A DNA stretch of 63,332 nt, filler included, from Licmophora abbreviata (GCA_900291995.1; 5 parts of 5 records of this genome joined end to end with filler, not necessarily neighbours in it); one strand, 5' to 3'. Counted from the whole stretch's first letter, positions 22,811 through 41,160 are shown. Numbers and translations are program-made. The notes: generated by a model not told the origin, from the letters alone.

Positions 22811-23524
22811 TCATCGACCCCCCTCGAGAAAGAAGTCTTCGTCAAATTCAATATCATCGTCCCCTTCGTCGAGGTCAATTCCTTGAACCAGCCCTCGGGG
22901 TAGCGAGTCGTCGTCTCCTCCGTACGCGCCGATTCCTTCACGCTTATATCCGGCCGTCGATACCTTGTCGATTAGGTACATCACATCGACGGCAGCAGAA
23001 ATATCAGCTTGGGCGAAAGTGAGGTTTGGGACTGACTTCATGTGACTCAGTCGTTGCGCGAGAGTGTGTCGAATAGGCTTTGTGTTCTGTACCAGCCAAC
23101 TGTAAGCGCGGCGCCGATCAACTGCAGGATTGAAAATGCCCTCCTCTTCGTCACCCTCGTTGGGCCCTCTTTTTCGAATCGACACGGTAATTCGCGCTTG
23201 GCGTAGGTCTGGTGAGATGTCAACATTCACAATGCTAATGCGTTGTCTCAGGTCGGACTCAAGGTAGTCCGCATCGCCCTTGATGTTGCCACGGTGCAAT
23301 ATCGATGATAGTTCTCCCTGCACCAAATGTCCGACTCGTTCCTGTCTCTTGGACCTCTCCTTTCCAGTTCGTGTCCTCCCACCTTTCGAACGGTAGTCCA
23401 TGGAAAGTTGGCTTGGAGTGACTGTCGACCGTCGAGTCGGACCGGCAACAGAAGCCCTCGGACAGAACGCCAGTGTACCAGTGAGCGAGGCCGCCACCGT
23501 AACAAAAAGTCCGAATCGATACAT
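22811..23524 (-). CDS. rbfA: Plastid ribosome-binding factor A
   Basis: RQERVGHLVQGELS, VDISPDLRQARI, IRHTLAQRL..MKSVPNLTF..D; signal peptide followed by LAFCP. Confidence 0.9.
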   Translation of the reverse strand: MYRFGLFVTVAASLTGTLAFCPRASVAGPTRRSTVTPSQLSMDYRSKGGRTRTGKERSKRQERVGHLVQGELSSILHRGNIKGDADYLESDLRQRISIVNVDISPDLRQARITVSIRKRGPNEGDEEEGIFNPAVDRRRAYSWLVQNTKPIRHTLAQRLSHMKSVPNLTFAQADISAAVDVMYLIDKVSTAGYKREGIGAYGGDDDSLPRGLVQGIDLDEGDDDIEFDEDFFLEGGR

Positions 23525-23989
23525 CAGCGGTATTTGGAAGTGTGCTTAGATTCGTCCTGTCCGACGGCGTGGGACTTAAGGAATTGAATCCACAAGCCAA
23601 GCTTGTTGTAGTCTGATGTATCGTACTGATTGCAATGCTTGTTCGGAACATGGTGCCAGTAGCATCATCGCGGCCGTCCATCTTGCCATCACAGAACAAA
23701 TCAACGTCCTGTCCGTCATCTCATGAATGGGTGGCTGCAATGACGCGCGATACAACTCCTGGGGCTCGCCTACAGACACCATACATACAGGTACTGATCA
23801 CATCCTTGATTTTTGATTTTGAATGACTACAGATGAGGAGTGACGGAATTCAATGTCTTCAGTCGAACGAGTCGAAAGAGACTGAATGACGTCATCAGTG
23901 AGACCACGACTCGTGACTCGACTGAATCGGTGTCTTATGTCTTCCAACCACATTCAAGACAGCAGATAGTGATAGTCCTAGTCCACACC

Positions 23990-28969: not shown

Positions 28970-29339
28970 GGTGTCTCTTTTCCCTTTGGTCCTCTGTTCG
29001 GGTCCGTTTAGTGAGTCGAGTCAACGCCGTCGGCTACGTAGTCGTCATCGCGTCATCGCTCCTTTCTCATTTTCGTCATGCGTCAACAGTCATTTTCAAT
29101 TTTGCACGCGGTACGCGGTTTGACCACACATCGCAGGACAGACGCAATAAGGCGTGTGGGCCATCCATCTTTGCGCCGGGGAACAAAAGATCCTGAACTG
29201 ATTTTAGATTTTGGGTGATGGCGGCGGGTTCCTGATTTCGCGATGGTCCTACAGACGATTCGATTCATTCATTCCTACACACCCCAGCGAGAAAGCATTC
29301 GTTCATTCACTCCTGTAACTTTGAATCATAGGCTTCATC

Positions 29340-32300
29340 ATGCCACCGAACGCACCATCAAGCGGCGTGAAGACGAACGCACAATCGTCACCATCAACGG
29401 AGGACTCGAACCGAAATTTGGAATGTGGTACAAGTCTGGCCGAAACTGAGCACATCATGTTGGGAAGCGACGCAAGTGCGACTCCTGCCTTGACCGACAC
29501 ACAGTCCACCAACGCTCTTGACTCAATTGAATCTTTGCAGAATGAAATTGCGTCCGATAAATTGACATCGGACGGCGGTGTCCTGGAGACCTTTACGTCG
29601 CCCTTCGAAGTACCCATTGCGATGCGAACTTCGACTACCGATCGCTTTCTTACGGTACCCATGGTGTATTGCGATCATACAGCCTCGAATCGCCCTGTCC
29701 AGAGCATTGAGCGATACATAGAAAGTGTATGTCTTCCGTTGTATGGAAATACGCATACCAACACGAGTATCACGGGCAGTCAGAGCACCGCCTTTGTCGC
29801 CGAAGCCCGCCAGATTGTCGCCGAAGCCACCAATGCTAAAGTAACTGGAAAGGCTAGTTTGGACGTCGTGCTCTTTGCGTAAGTGCTGTATTAATGCAGT
29901 TTGTATCTGAAAAGACTGTTGTGGTTACCAGTGGTTGACTCATTGATACGCTAACGATTTGTTTTCGTAGTGGCAACGGTTGCACGTCTGCCGTCGAACT
30001 TCTGATTGACTGTCTTGGATTGCAGAGCACACCAACAGAAAACTCGCAAAGACCTGTTGTCTTTGTTGGACCGCACGAGCACCACTCCAATTTGCTGCCT
30101 TGGCGAGAATCGGGGTGCGAGATCGTCATGGTACCCGAGAGTCCGTCGTCAGGGTCGGTCGATATCGATGCATTGGACCAGCTGCTGTCGCACCCGCAAT
30201 ACGCTTCGCGACTCAAAATGGGAACCTTCACGGCGGCGTCTAATGTGACGGGAGCTGTTTCGAACGTCGACGAAATCGCCGCTACACTTCATCGTCACGG
30301 CTCTCTTGCCTTTTTCGACTATGCAACGGGAGCACCGTACTTGCCCATGAATATGAATCCACCACCCTCCGAACAATACCCCTCCGTATCCATGACTTGT
30401 AAAGATGCTATTTTTCTTAGCCCACACAAAATGCTAGGAGGGGTTGGTACGCCAGGAGTCTTGATCGTAAAGAAGCATTTGGTGAATCAAGTCAATGCAC
30501 CTTCGCGAAGTGGAGGGGGCACTGTCTTTTACGTCACAAACAAGCACCATCGCTTCTTGAGCAATCGAATTGAGCGATACGAAGGTGGGACGCCAAATGT
30601 GACAGGTATTGTCAGAACAGGTCTGACGTTTCTTTTGAAGCGCAAACTCGAACAGCAGTACGCACTGATACATGACGGGGCAAATGACAACAGCGTTCCA
30701 AAAAGTCTCGTGGAGTTCGACTACAATACCTACGACCGCATCATCCAGAGACTCAAGAGGACTTCCCCGAATCTGGTCATGCTCGGGTGCAATTCTGGTG
30801 GAAGGCATCTACCTATCTTCTCGTTCCTTGTGAGATGTGGGCGTCGCTTCTTGCATTATAATTACGTCTGCGCCATTCTAAACGATGTGTTTGGGATTCA
30901 GAGTCGCGGTGGATGTCAGTGCGCTGGTCCATACTCGCAACGACTGCTCGGCCTTACAGAACGCGATTCAAACGGCAACGATGTATCCAATAGACGAAAT
31001 GAGGAGATTGAGCATGCCTTGATGCGTTTCAAGGAGAGAGCTGAGCTACTTCGTCCCGGCTTTACTAGATTGAGTTTGCCCTTCAAAGGATTGCGAGAGG
31101 ACGAGACCGAGTACGTGGTCAGCGCTATGGAATGGGTGGCAAAGAACGCGTGGTCGCTCATGTGTCAATACACATGCAACCATCGAACAGGAGAGGTACG
31201 ACGTCTTTGAAAAAGTGAGGTCGCTCGTGTTCCGAGTGCATTGTCTCACGAAATCATACGCTGTTATGTTCTGGTAGTGGCGTCATCAAAGTCGACAAGG
31301 CAAACCTCTTGGACGAAATGAACGCAGATGGCTGAGTCGCTACAACTGCCTGCAGGCTCTCCCTAGAAAGCCTTCGTCGTCGACCCTGTCAGGTACTTCG
31401 GCGGTAGCGTCCATGCAAAAGGAGGCGCTTGTAACCGCGGACTCTTTGCTTGTTGCGGCAAGGGCGGATCGACCTAGCATAGCACAAGCACTCAAGATGA
31501 GCGCCGCAGAAGCGACTCTGGGTGGCCTTGACGACTCGATGGAGCATCTTCGATGGTATATCTATCCCAAGGAGTGCGCAGTTTGGATCACTGAGGGTTT
31601 GTCACACCCACCAGACACCGAGTCTCTTGAGATTCTTGGATGTTTGCGTCCTGGAGCTGTCGAAATCCGGAAAGCCAGACAAACGGTGTTGCCGGAGATC
31701 CTCGACCCTATGGTTGTTTCTTCTCCAGATGCGCTGGCGGACAGTCGAAAGAGAAAGCTGTTTCCTACTGGTGGTTCCCTTTCGAATGGTGACGTGATCG
31801 ATACCACCGAGCAAACAATCTCTGAATCTTCCTTTGCGTTTCGTGATGGTGAACACACTGGGGAAGCTTCTCTCAACGAGATCGAGGCTGGCTATGAGGA
31901 CGGTGAGCTCTCACATTCTTGTCAGGTTTTCGACAGTACATGTGATTCATGGGTGCCTGTAAACCTTTTCTTGAGCGGGGCGCAGATCAAGCCTGCGGTG
32001 TCCACCGCTCACGAAGAAGGCGATGAAGTCGTGCGTGATGCTGTTGATGATCGCAAAAAACCCTTTCGAGACAGCTCTGCGTGGGGACAGGCGTCAGTGC
32101 CGGAGCCGCCGACGAAGCCGAAACCTCCCCTTGAGTTCTCTAGCACAACCGCTGTTTGCCCTGGAAAGAAGAACCGGAAAGGCCGGGGTATCCGACCCCC
32201 ACCAAAGATGATGCGATATATCACGCAAGCGATCTTCCAGTGGAACATGATCGAAGAGGGGGATAGGCTTCTCCTTGGCCTTTCTGGTGGAAAGGATTCT

Positions 32301-33284
32301 CTCAGTCTTCTGCACTGCTTGCTTGAGCTCAAGCGAAAGCTACCCATCAACTTTGATATTGAGGTCTGCACAATTGATCCGCTGACTCCGTCGTTCGACC
32401 CTAGCCCGTTGATTCCATATGTTGAGTCGATCGGGCTGAAGTACCACTACATTCGAGACGACATCGTAGACCGAGCAAGCAAGAGTGGTAAAAACGGTGA
32501 GACAGTCTCGTCCTTGTGCGCATACTGCGCTAGAATGAAACGAGGGAATTTGTATACATGTGCGCGTCGGAACAACTGCAATAAGCTCGTTTTGGCTCAG
32601 CACCTTGACGATCTTGCTGAGAGTTTTCTTATGAGCACGTTTCATAATGGTTTCGTGCGAACAATGAAAGCAAACTACCGTATCAACTCTGGAGATCTCT
32701 CAGTCATCCGACCGATGGTGTACTGTCGTGAGAGTCTCATGACTGAGTTCGCCAAGGCAAGCAACCTACCTGTCATTAACGAGAATTGTCCCGCTTGCTT
32801 CGAGGAACCGAAAGAAAGGGCAAGGGTGAAAAAACTTCTTTCTCGAGAAGAAACGTTGTATCCAAACATTTACGACAACATCCGCCGTTCCTTGATTCCA
32901 TTAATGCACGACGACTCAACAGCAATACTTCGCTCCTACCTTGAGGAAGCCTTGGAGAAAAGCAAGAAGGAGAACCAGATGAAATTCAAAAATGAAGTCT
33001 GGAGAAGAAAGTTGCAAGATAAGGCAATCGACGACGGACTGGAGAGTACGACCGGTGGCGCAAGAAACGTGACGGAAGTCGAACAGACTTCAAAAAGAGC
33101 AAAGCTGACGCTGTCCAACGCAAGTGAAGAGGAGCTAGTTACTGAACTCGCAAGACGTCGAGCTGAGAAATTCAGATTGGCTGGTGCGATGAAACGTCTT
33201 GGCAACGACGAAGATCCAACTGGTCAGGTCTGTACGTTGAAGGGCGGCGATGGCAGTATTCCTTGTCATGAGCTCATGGAATAA
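29340..33284 (+). CDS. Fusion of class-V aminotransferase (cysteine desulfurase-like) and TtcA-type PP-loop tRNA thiolase, 3 exons: 29340-29878, 29971-31195, 31278-33284 (about 1256 aa)
   Basis: YCDHTAS, YGNTH, EHHSN, FDYA, SPHK (PLP Lys), EGGTP, SRGGCQCAG; then LGLSGGKDS, CAYCARMKRG, AQHLDD, VIRPM, ENCPAC. Both introns are GT-AG and splice in frame (..TGE|WRH..). Confidence 0.85.
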
Positions 33285-34086: not shown

Positions 34087-34186
34087 NNNNNNNNNNNNNN
34101 NNNNNNNNNNNNNNNNNNNNNNNNNNNNNNTTAATTAATTAANNNNNNNNNNNNNNNNNNNNNNNNNNNNNNNNNNNNNNNNNNNN
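34087..34186. other. Assembly gap spacer
   Basis: N44-TTAATTAATTAA-N44. Confidence 0.97.
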
Positions 34187-38794: not shown

Positions 38795-39159
38795 TGCTGC
38801 TCTGGAGCGGCGAGAGTGGTTCTAAATCTGCTCCCTGACCTGTTCTATTCTACTTTTGAGCTTGGTAGATCCGCTGTCGATGTGATACTCTAGATCGCCG
38901 CTGTCTTCGTCATGTTTTATGGTCGCGAGAGAGTGAATGGCGAGTTCATCGCGACATGCATTCGCAAGGGCATATATATCATAGTCACAGTCTTGTCTCA
39001 TTAATGTCGTACCAACGTCATTCTACTTATTTGATGACGTTTTGGTAAAACCAGGCTCACATTTTGAAACGAAATCGGCGATCGTAGAAATCGCCATCTG
39101 GTCTTGATGACGAGTGTTTGTTGTCAGGACCGGTTCACGGTATGATACACACAACCAGG

Positions 39160-41160
39160 ATGGCAGATTTTCATTACCGGTATACTGGACGAGTGTTAGT
39201 CCAAGGAAGAGCATCAAGGGACCCAACTGGCGCTCCCGTTTTGCTCTCCGATGTTCCTCTCTCATTTTGGGGCGGGATCGACCCAGATTCGGGCGAGGTG
39301 GTAGATCGCCTGCATCCTTTGTTTGGCGAGCAGGTTCAGGATACCGTATTGTGTCTTCCGTCGGGACGGGGGTCCTGTACGGCGTCACAGGTCCTATTGG
39401 AGTTGATTTTGCGAGGGAAATCGCCGAAAGCCATCGTTCTAAGGGATCTTGATGGACTTGTCTGTGTTGGAGCGTTGGTTGCGCAAGAAGTATTTCGGGA
39501 CGAATGCAATGGCAGTGTGCCCGACATAATTTGTCTTGAAAGGGGAGAGTTTGAAAGACTTACAGCACAAGCACCAAAATATGCCTGTATCGCGGCGGAT
39601 GGAAGCATCACCGCGGGCGAGACTGTCTTGCATGCGCAAAACAAAGAAAGGCAGCTCGATGTTCTTTACACGTCGGTTCCCCCGCTGACCAAGCCCCCGC
39701 TGACTGATGAAGAGCAGTCGATGCTGGACGCATGTGTAACAGAAGCAGAGAAAATGGCACTCGGTGTCGTGATGAGATATGCCCGTGTTATTACTGCCCC
39801 AGAATCATCGACCGCCTATCTCGACGTGACAAAGGCACACATTGATGGATGTACATATATTGGAAATGGAGGACTCGAGTTTGTACAGCGTCTCGTAAAA
39901 ACAGGGGGCAATGTCAAAATTCCTACAACTCTCAACTCTGTCTCGGTAGATCGAAGGCGATGGCAAAGTTTAGGAGTTCCATCGGAGCGAGCGCTCGCGT
40001 CTATTGCGGTTGGCGACTCGTATCTGGCGCTGGGGTGTCACTCGCATTCATTTACGTGTGCACCCTATCTACTCGACGATCCACCCCAGCTCAAAGAAAA
40101 CATTGTCTGGGGGGAAAGCAATGCTGTAGTATATGCAAACTCGGTGCTGGGGGCAAGAACGGAAAAGTATGCTGATTATTTGGACATTTGTTGTGCACTA
40201 GTCGGCAAAGTTCCATCCTCAGGTGTTCATCTCGATGAAAATCGTCGACCACGTATCATCTTGGATGCCACGGACGCACTGCAACAAGTGTGGGATGAGA
40301 ACGTAGATTTGGAATCCCTATTTCCTACGCTTGGACACTTATGCGGGACATTGTCGGGTGGGAAATTGCCTATTCTTTTCGGCTTCGATGAGTCGCCCTG
40401 GCGTGAGTTTGTCACAAGAGATCACTTGAAAGCTCTCTGCGCTGCATACGGTACCACCGGCACGTCACCACTTATCCATATTGCTGGTATTACTCCGGAG
40501 GCGAAAGTATCGAATAAAATTGCGGAACTCATCAAGGACTGTGAAGAGCGCTGTGATGTGACGATCGAGAGTTTGTCCAAGACACATGCATCGTTGGACG
40601 CTTCCGCAGATGCGCAGGATCTTGATGTCAGTCTGATCGCGCTGGGAAACCCGCATTTATCAATTACTGAATGCCAACAGCTAGCAGAGCTCGTCGAGGC
40701 ACTCGATATTTCGACAAAGCATCCTGACGTTCGAATCATGGCATGCATGTCAAGAACGCTGTACGATCAAGCCGTGAGGCGCGGCTACATACAGAAGCTC
40801 GAGTCATTCGGTGTCGAGTTTGTAAATGACACATGCTGGTGCATGCTGCTTGACAGCCCCGTTATTCCGTCTCACCCAGACGCATTGATAATGACGAATA
40901 GTGGCAAGTATGCCCATTATGGACCAGCTCTGACAGGAAAATTCTTCCGCTTTGGCAGCATGGCAGATTGCGTACATGCCGCAACAACAAAATCCTATCC
41001 CGAGAGATTGATGCGCGGCGCCAACGTGTCAGGCCCTCCATGGCTATCGCCTTTTCTGCATGGCACGCAGCGGCGAATGCATTCGACTGTAGGTACAGGG
41101 CGCTTTCGTCAGCAGCGGGTGATGTGGTCTATTCTTTCGTGTGCGAGACGTTGCTGTTGA
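39160..41160 (+). CDS. Aconitase X, single-chain type I (cis-3-hydroxy-L-proline dehydratase-like; swivel DUF126 + DUF521 domains)
   Basis: LSFWGGIDP, LPSGRGSCTAS, AHIDGCTY, FTCAPY, WGESNAVVYANSVLGART, LGNPH, DTCWCM, TNSGKYAHY; no introns needed. Confidence 0.88.
   Translation: MADFHYRYTGRVLVQGRASRDPTGAPVLLSDVPLSFWGGIDPDSGEVVDRLHPLFGEQVQDTVLCLPSGRGSCTASQVLLELILRGKSPKAIVLRDLDGLVCVGALVAQEVFRDECNGSVPDIICLERGEFERLTAQAPKYACIAADGSITAGETVLHAQNKERQLDVLYTSVPPLTKPPLTDEEQSMLDACVTEAEKMALGVVMRYARVITAPESSTAYLDVTKAHIDGCTYIGNGGLEFVQRLVKTGGNVKIPTTLNSVSVDRRRWQSLGVPSERALASIAVGDSYLALGCHSHSFTCAPYLLDDPPQLKENIVWGESNAVVYANSVLGARTEKYADYLDICCALVGKVPSSGVHLDENRRPRIILDATDALQQVWDENVDLESLFPTLGHLCGTLSGGKLPILFGFDESPWREFVTRDHLKALCAAYGTTGTSPLIHIAGITPEAKVSNKIAELIKDCEERCDVTIESLSKTHASLDASADAQDLDVSLIALGNPHLSITECQQLAELVEALDISTKHPDVRIMACMSRTLYDQAVRRGYIQKLESFGVEFVNDTCWCMLLDSPVIPSHPDALIMTNSGKYAHYGPALTGKFFRFGSMADCVHAATTKSYPERLMRGANVSGPPWLSPFLHGTQRRMHSTVGTGRFRQQRVMWSILSCARRCC

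Follow-up and report, generated by a model that had tools for sequence, protein, structure and literature searches.

We analysed a stretch of 63,332 nucleotides from the diatom Licmophora abbreviata (GCA_900291995.1), referred to below as the window, in which a gene on the forward strand (29340-33284) is predicted to encode a cysteine desulfurase-like domain and a TtcA-like tRNA thiolation domain in a single polypeptide. Judged from sequence comparisons, its product is quite probably a bifunctional enzyme of the eukaryotic cysteine desulfurase-TtcA family, one that would make 2-thiocytidine at position 32 of tRNA (s2C32) with sulfur that it supplies itself. The structural side of this interpretation is supported, and the functional side is plausible. 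An initial annotation of the locus had allowed that the architecture might be new. This is not upheld, since the fusion is widespread, carries a name in databases, and has been described together with s2C32 in Aplysia (bioRxiv 10.64898/2026.09.27.754811, seen in part). The architecture is therefore already published, and the diatom gene joins a recently described family. The additions found in diatoms and their close relatives may nonetheless be worth testing.

One spliced gene for a two-domain protein

Three open reading frames (ORFs) had been proposed to splice through two GT-AG introns into a protein of about 1256 residues, and this gene model is confirmed by comparison with homologous sequences (coordinates in Table 1). 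Joining the three exons gives a coding sequence of 3771 nt with no internal stop and one terminal stop, translating to 1256 residues. In the joined protein the motifs lie at residues 216 (EHHSN), 330 (SPHK), 492 (RGGCQCAG), 924 (SGGKDS), 1002 (CAYC), 1029 (QHLDD), and 1092 (CPAC). Pfam recognises Aminotran_5 (PF00266, E 3e-25) on exon 2 and ATP_bind_3 (PF01171, E 4.5e-13) on exon 3, and no domain beyond these two in the three exon translations.

Both splice junctions restore sequence that is shared with homologues. The first, joined as VVLFA|GNG (VVLFAGNGCT), is free of gaps in the alignment. The second falls inside the motif HRTGE|WRH..RRWLS, the first half of which is kept in all 10 aligned homologues, from diatoms to animals, and the second half (R+WL) in 9 of them, Octopus being the exception. 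This junction also reads without interruption, as H[RK][TS]GEWRH, in five diatom proteins derived from MMETSP transcripts, and a second diatom contig (L001, described below) is interrupted exactly at the site of intron 2 by an intron that contains an in-frame stop; retention of intron 2 in Licmophora would likewise lead to an in-frame stop, at 31210. Because the conserved motif, the transcript-derived proteins, and the L001 intron all support the junction, we read the three ORFs as one spliced nuclear gene for a predicted bifunctional protein. Conservation within the exon 1 region is uneven, with identity to diatom homologues of 0.21-0.24 over residues 1-100 versus 0.70-0.77 over residues 101-200.

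The C-terminal half belongs with TtcA

The C-terminal half was expected to show the layout of bacterial TtcA with its two CxxC motifs, and all of the relevant elements (SGGKDS, CAYC, QHLDD, and a distal CPAC) are present. Among curated hidden Markov models (HMMs) of NCBIfam, the TtcA model NF007972, which represents the E. coli and Salmonella type, scored highest on exon 3 (198.6 bits, E 1.3e-58; cut-off 272), with much lower values for TilS_N (57.4 bits, cut-off 93.6), TtuA (33.5 bits), and NcsA (NF047749, 29 bits, cut-off 500). This half is 52-58% identical to proteins from Thiotrichales-like and Chromatiales-like bacteria that stand alone and bear the name TtcA. Gammaproteobacteria of these kinds also account for 79 of the 80 genome loci that were kept, at 47-53% identity, and L001 is the remaining one. 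The nearest prokaryotic sequences are short TtcA-like proteins of about 245-270 residues from sulfur-oxidising Gammaproteobacteria (Chromatiaceae, Thiotrichaceae, and Sedimenticolaceae). They match the diatom domain over most of its length at 47-58% identity and have the CAYC.RMKRG and CPAC motifs in common with it, but they stand alone, unlike the diatom fusion. Since the NF007972 cut-off is not reached by these short bacterial proteins either (217-223 bits), the C half is best filed as a TtcA-type domain of the short clade and not as an equivalog of the E. coli enzyme, an assignment that the sequence comparisons support.

The residues expected to matter for catalysis are shared with the characterised enzyme. 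In E. coli TtcA, both the [4Fe-4S] cluster and activity depend on Cys122, Cys125, and Cys222, the C222A variant being inactive and the C219A variant still active, and the reaction in vitro requires ATP, cysteine, and a desulfurase (PMC4081106, seen in part). The columns of the diatom residues C1002 and C1005 hold cysteine in 15/15 canonical, 12/12 short bacterial, and 16/16 eukaryotic rows. The C1095 column does so in all 43 TtcA-type rows, as do the conserved S, K, and D of the PP-loop, and the C1092 column is cysteine in 14 of the 15 canonical rows. Both TilS rows lack the CxxC and CPAC cysteines. The diatom domain thus has the PP-loop, the central and distal CxxC, and the three cluster cysteines in common with E. 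coli and Salmonella TtcA, and its chemistry may be presumed alike, that is, ATP-dependent, [4Fe-4S]-dependent, and non-redox. It differs from these proteins in clade and in being fused, as E. coli and Salmonella TtcA are stand-alone and rely on a separate IscS.

Phylogenetic analysis (45 rows, 265 columns, LG+C20, TilS as outgroup, with TtuA and Ctu1/NcsA left outside the tree) placed the Licmophora domain within a diatom clade with support of 100/100. All 16 eukaryotic domains grouped together with L001 (66/86), as sister to the short gammaproteobacterial TtcA-like group (65/91). The 15 canonical E. coli-type TtcA sequences were set apart (93/95) by long branches of 1.25 and 2.18, and TilS was a distant outgroup. 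Because the bacteria sampled were biased to close matches, the tree does not identify a donor.

Other members of the fold class were considered for this half. The [4Fe-4S] s2U thiolases Ctu1/Ncs6/NcsA and TtuA have in common with the diatom domain the fold class and the logic of a cluster combined with a PP-loop. Their N-terminal zinc-finger cysteine pairs are missing from the diatom protein, as had been claimed for Ncs6/Ctu1: the 45 residues before SGGKDS contain no cysteine of an Ncs6/TtuA-type pair or any other. Ctu1/NcsA and TtuA were ruled out by this feature and by their low HMM scores, and TilS by its sub-threshold score, its distance in the tree, and the missing cluster cysteines. In an AlphaFold model of exon 3, the TtcA domain has a predicted local distance difference test (pLDDT) score of 82-98 over most of its length. 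Its best fold matches in the PDB are the [4Fe-4S] thiolases NcsA and TtuA, together with TilS (E 3e-11 to 2e-9, TM 0.61-0.65); no TtcA structure was among the matches of the PDB sequence or fold searches.

The N-terminal half is a SufS/CsdA-like desulfurase domain

The N-terminal half had been recognised by the class-V pyridoxal phosphate (PLP) motifs EHHSN and SPHK, and both are present and align with bacterial SufS. We aligned this domain with a NifS and with a bacterial SufS-SufE protein of 608 residues from a Halochromatium genome (G001, locus L085:1381-3204, forward strand; sufS 537 bits, above the cut-off of that model; SufE 104 bits), which is itself a case of a desulfurase fused to its own acceptor. 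EHHSN is identical in this reference SufS. The resemblance proposed between RGGCQCAG and the group-II persulfide motif holds at the level of the individual residue, as the second cysteine, C497, is aligned with the catalytic cysteine of SufS (RTGHHC) and with the cysteine of SGSAC in NifS. In a PDB sequence search, all 41 matched sequences were cysteine desulfurases or close kin, mostly SufS/CsdA.

Relative to group-II SufS/CsdA enzymes, the diatom protein has in common EHHSN, the SxHK lysine, and a co-located R-x-G-x-x-C-A-x-P active-site loop. It differs in having C-x-C where those enzymes have H-H-C, in a C-terminal extension of about 200 residues with a conserved LRW motif, and in having no SufE/CsdE partner domain by Pfam. 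We describe the N half as a distant SufS relative, SufS-like but not SufS, and its assignment as a group-II (SufS/CsdA-like) desulfurase-type domain is supported by these comparisons. The PLP-domain family is large, with 761 representative clusters at E <= 1e-30. It includes apparently stand-alone proteins of about 618-657 residues, for example in Aphanomyces, and shorter matches that are mostly unnamed or partial models.

Distribution of the fusion and published precedent

Exon 3 was compared with proteins of at least 1170 residues, which gave 210 matches among 7999 scored candidates, 120 of them listed. PF01171 and PF00266 are both found in 120/120 listed relatives, in answer to the proposed search for Aminotran_5 plus ATP_bind_3 architectures, and the PLP active-site motif precedes the PP-loop in 119 of them. 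The S.HK pattern occurs in every listed relative and the C.C[AS]GP pattern in 119/120. These proteins come from diatoms (several of them MMETSP assemblies marked "type:complete"), oomycetes, a brown alga, Cafeteria, Naegleria, and animals, the last including sea urchin, mayfly, octopus, fluke, and hemichordates, and some are named "cytidine(32) 2-sulfurtransferase" in databases. The PLP lysine, C-x-C, SGGKDS, CxxC, and CPAC are all present in 17 aligned homologues, 6 of them animals.

Some listed relatives carry further domains, namely a Kelch motif (PF01344) in the close diatom-type relatives P0001 (1450 residues) and P0005 (1407 residues), thioredoxin (PF00085) in P0098 and P0109, and NYN (PF01936) in P0059. 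Such extra domains could be genuine accretions or products of merged gene models. A whole fused gene with introns also lies at the end of a contig filed under an uncultured Verrucomicrobiota metagenome-assembled genome (L001:1-3905, contig CALNYA010000072.1); by tblastn it covers Licmophora residues 29-1153, and it nests inside the diatom clade (100/100). Because a fused gene with introns sits in the diatom clade, this 133-kb contig is probably diatom DNA binned into a bacterial genome.

2-Thiocytidine has long been counted among the tRNA marks of bacteria and archaea, and the initial annotation had regarded it as prokaryotic. A purely prokaryotic status is contradicted by two reports, each seen in part. 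An oil-palm paper of 2025 lists s2C at position 32 by oligonucleotide mass spectrometry of total tRNA (PMC11954249), and a preprint dated 28 September 2026 describes s2C32 on tRNA-Lys-UUU of Aplysia, where the sole TtcA match is a CsdA-TtcA fusion of 1177 residues (bioRxiv 10.64898/2026.09.27.754811). The preprint calls this protein "IscS-TtcA", with CsdA and TtcA-like domains, and reports it from molluscs, with birds and insects given as data not shown; the text available to us names only animals. In the literature searched, which did not extend to the species lists in the supplements of the preprint, no published description of the fusion from a diatom or any other protist came to light.

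As described in the available text of the preprint, the Aplysia californica protein has the same domain order as the diatom one (CsdA/SufS-like PLP domain, long linker, TtcA-like domain) and shares with it the conserved PLP lysine, C-x-C, SGGKDS, CxxC, and CPAC. Because its comparison was with IscS, the preprint left the catalytic cysteine open, with the conserved Cys448 and Cys450 as candidates (bioRxiv 10.64898/2026.09.27.754811). Setting the motif against that description, these most likely correspond to C495 and C497 of Licmophora. In our alignment, the catalytic cysteine of the SufS type is matched by the second cysteine of the diatom protein. Octopus and other animals can be aligned with the diatom protein over its two domains. 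The diatom protein differs from the animal rows in an extra GYF-like insert in the linker and in a C-terminal tail with two cysteines.

Proposed mechanism and sulfur supply

By homology, the reaction would begin at the SufS/CsdA-type PLP domain, where K333 would take part in removing sulfur from free L-cysteine to leave a persulfide on C497. The TtcA-type domain would bind ATP at SGGKDS and adenylate O2 of cytidine 32 in some tRNAs. A [4Fe-4S] cluster held by C1002, C1005, and C1095 would then accept the sulfur at its free iron, as hydrosulfide or persulfide, and its delivery would yield s2C32 and AMP, by a route like that proposed for TtcA and TtuA. The fusion would in this way hold the sulfur donor and the sulfur user in one polypeptide. 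Ctu1/NcsA/TtuA enzymes, in comparison, draw their sulfur from Urm1/TtuB-type thiocarboxylates and not from a fused desulfurase.

The protein had been proposed to supply its own sulfur, independent of the Nfs1/Urm1/Uba4 relay. With donor and user fused, the inserted sulfur need not pass through Nfs1-Urm1, and this part of the proposal is possible. A TtcA domain in the cytosol, however, would still receive its [4Fe-4S] cluster by the iron-sulfur cluster (ISC) and cytosolic iron-sulfur assembly (CIA) route of eukaryotes, so independence from Nfs1 would extend at most to the inserted sulfur atom.

Alternative explanations

Several observations weigh against the interpretation as a self-supplying s2C32 enzyme. 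The best NCBIfam model for the N half, sufS (TIGR01979), reached 89.4 bits against a cut-off of 475.1, with exon 2 alone as the query and about 75 N-terminal residues of the domain lying outside it in exon 1. Group-II desulfurases normally need an acceptor (SufE, SufU, or CsdE), and Pfam found no acceptor domain of these types in the three exon translations. In the C half, the TtcA score is below its cut-off, the deep nodes of the tree are moderately supported, the clade is separate from the E. coli type, which is the sole characterised one, and Ctu1/NcsA and TtuA are excluded by HMM scores only. The sole experimental tie for the fusion family, the link between gene and modification in Aplysia, is in the text seen a co-occurrence and not genetics (bioRxiv 10.64898/2026.09.27.754811). 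Some of these points would also fit a TtcA-like domain that thiolates something other than C32 of tRNA, be it another position, base, or RNA. The long branches that split the eukaryotic and short gammaproteobacterial group from the 15 canonical sequences, the membership of the domain in a short-type clade lacking biochemically characterised members, and the scores of Licmophora and the bacterial short type below 272 bits agree with such a target. Yet TtcA is by far the best-matching model, every catalytic and cluster residue is common to canonical TtcA, and Aplysia, with a fused relative, carries s2C at position 32 itself according to the part of the preprint seen; we consider another target improbable.

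It is also quite improbable, by a small further step, that the tRNA sulfur is donated by something other than the PLP domain, and that this domain instead builds or repairs the [4Fe-4S] cluster of the TtcA domain or acts on another substrate such as selenocysteine. E. coli s2C32 depends on IscU besides IscS, which has been read as a need for cluster assembly, but cysteine and a desulfurase are the sulfur source of TtcA in vitro (both from PMC4081106, seen in part). The distance of the PLP domain from curated desulfurase cut-offs, and the existence of stand-alone relatives of about 620-657 residues, as in Aphanomyces, which give the PLP family roles outside the fusion, would suit a non-donor; the SufS-type catalytic cysteine, the PLP lysine, and EHHSN are nevertheless kept throughout the fusion family, and the two roles are compatible with each other. 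Least credible of all would be two separate genes at the locus, with the stop at 31210 closing the frame of a PLP enzyme and an internal methionine of the third ORF opening that of a TtcA gene. The frame read through intron 2 does end at that stop, internal methionine codons do precede the TtcA domain in the third ORF, and many short database models hold one domain only. Those short models, however, lie mainly on short contigs or are labelled partial, both domains occur in every listed long relative, and the third ORF opens with 115 residues that extend a region conserved in the PLP family, invariant tryptophan included. The motif spanning the second junction, kept from protists to animals in 9 of 10 aligned homologues (Octopus has the first half only) and unbroken in the five transcript-derived diatom proteins, likewise argues for one fused gene.

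Cellular location

The N-terminus had been described as lacking a presequence, and its composition agrees with this. The first 110 residues contain no hydrophobic stretch of the signal-peptide kind (maximum 15-residue Kyte-Doolittle mean 0.91), the first 40 are acidic by count (2 K/R versus 5 D/E), and no mitochondrial presequence is evident. Import into diatom plastids requires a signal peptide of the endoplasmic reticulum type, and a plastid location is unlikely because no such stretch is seen. From the absence of a signal-like segment, we infer that the protein is likely cytosolic and that its substrates are likely cytosolic tRNAs.

The region between the domains, the insert, and the tail

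About 310 residues separate the two catalytic domains, and not all of this is linker. A helical stretch at residues 38-89 of exon 3 (block pLDDT 47-89) is followed by the motif LRWYIYP. The tryptophan of its LRW never varies in either of two alignments of fused homologues, each with 56 rows and a range from diatoms to animals. Further on lies a 56-residue module with a predicted beta-beta-alpha-beta-beta-alpha fold, modelled with a pLDDT of 93-95 within exon 3 and 88.8 when folded alone. Fold searches with the module returned GYF domains at the top, as weak matches (1wh2, Z 5.3, root-mean-square deviation 2.9, 56 aligned; GIGYF2, Foldseek E 0.075), and Pfam gave no GYF match at E <= 0.01. Reading the module as a ubiquitin-like (beta-grasp) sulfur carrier finds no support, since no structure of that kind was among the fold matches listed. 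The module is present in 40 aligned diatom-type homologues and in neither Seminavis nor any non-diatom row; these are 40 of 44 homologues, P0015, P0017, P0051, and P0058 having been dropped for the lowest identity in a wider 73-residue alignment.

The protein ends in a tail with two conserved cysteines. Its consensus, DPTGQVC..GG.G.IPC.ELME, is kept in most diatom rows shown, altered in Epithemia, and lacking in Seminavis. A similar tail is found in the brown alga Pylaiella and none in the animal rows, and the tail pattern is present in 44 of the 120 listed relatives. The Licmophora protein and its close relatives are marked by two new details, the GYF-like insert, seen in diatoms only, and the two-cysteine tail, which a brown alga has as well as diatoms.

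Significance

If the proposed function holds, the cytosolic tRNA of a major group of marine primary producers would contain 2-thiocytidine, made without a separate sulfur relay. A unicellular diatom may suit tests of the link between gene and modification better than a sea slug. Three details from this analysis could inform such tests. The alignment of C497 with the SufS-type catalytic cysteine bears on a point that the 2026 preprint left open; the others are the conserved LRW motif between the catalytic domains, and the GYF-like insert together with the cysteine tail.

A wider scenario can be drawn from these observations, although taken as a whole it is more likely wrong than right and we offer it as speculation. 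In it, s2C32 would be widespread across eukaryotic supergroups as a modification of cytosolic tRNA that has been overlooked. The enzyme making it would be self-sufficient, with a TtcA half related to that of sulfur-oxidising Gammaproteobacteria and with the inserted sulfur drawn straight from free cysteine, bypassing Nfs1-Urm1. The two-cysteine tail of diatoms and brown algae would act as a swinging persulfide carrier in the role of SufE/CsdE, and the GYF-like insert, confined to diatoms, would serve to dock the protein to a partner rich in proline.

Features of the window

Table 1. Positions of the fusion gene, its predicted functional elements, and surrounding features, counted from the first nucleotide of the window.
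Feature	Position (nt)	Strand	Remarks
Three ORFs of the initial annotation	29325-29882, 29939-31210, 31278-33284	+	
Exon 1	29340-29878	+	ATG at 29340; acidic/Ser-Thr N-terminus, then start of PLP domain
Start of PLP domain within exon 1	from about 29658	+	PMVYCDHTASNRP
Intron 1	29879-29970	+	92 nt, GTAAGT...TAG; codon split after second base
Exon 2	29971-31195	+	Bulk of class-V PLP (SufS/CsdA-like) domain, with the extension at its C-terminal end
Codon of K333 in SPHK, predicted PLP Schiff-base lysine	30428-30430	+	Aligns with SGHK lysine of bacterial SufS and NifS
C495-Q-C497 in RGGCQCAGP	30914-30922	+	C497, predicted persulfide-forming cysteine
Intron 2	31196-31277	+	82 nt, GTACGA...TAG; between codons
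Exon 3	31278-33284	+	End of PLP-family extension, linker, TtcA-type domain, tail, stop codon
LRW of LRWYIYP	31548-31556	+	Conserved motif, helical region between both catalytic domains
56-residue beta-beta-alpha-beta-beta-alpha module, GYF-like by fold	31824-31991	+	Predicted structure
TtcA-type PP-loop domain, predicted [4Fe-4S] thiolase	32205-32915	+	NF007972 match
PP-loop SGGKDS, predicted ATP binding/adenylation	32283-32300	+	In 120/120 listed fused relatives
C1002-A-Y-C1005, predicted [4Fe-4S] ligands 1 and 2	32517-32528	+	Column comparison with TtcA rows
C1092-P-A-C1095, C1095 predicted ligand 3	32787-32798	+	Column comparison with TtcA rows
C-terminal tail with two conserved cysteines	33213-33281	+	DPTGQVCTLKGGDGSIPCHELME; alignment rows
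RbfA-like ORF	22811-23545	-	
Response-regulator receiver and LuxR/GerE helix-turn-helix ORF, 370 residues	23837-24949	+	PF00072 E 5e-24, PF00196 E 7e-6
Run of N (assembly gap)	about 34090-34185		Breaks ORFs of either strand, shortly downstream of the gene
RNA pseudouridylate synthase ORF, 635 residues	35086-36993	-	PF00849 E 4e-23
Aconitase X ORF, 690 residues, swivel and catalytic domains joined	39088-41160	+	PF01989 and PF04412, E 1e-120

The neighbours of the fusion gene resemble ordinary nuclear genes, and none shows an obvious functional connection with it (Table 1). Models of the 3' neighbours are incomplete because a run of N interrupts the ORFs there. On the upstream side, the pairing of a bacterial-type response-regulator receiver with a LuxR/GerE helix-turn-helix is unusual in a eukaryotic nuclear gene. 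Downstream, at a distance of about 1.8 kb and on the opposite strand, the pseudouridine synthase ORF is a second RNA-modification gene, and its proximity is probably a coincidence.

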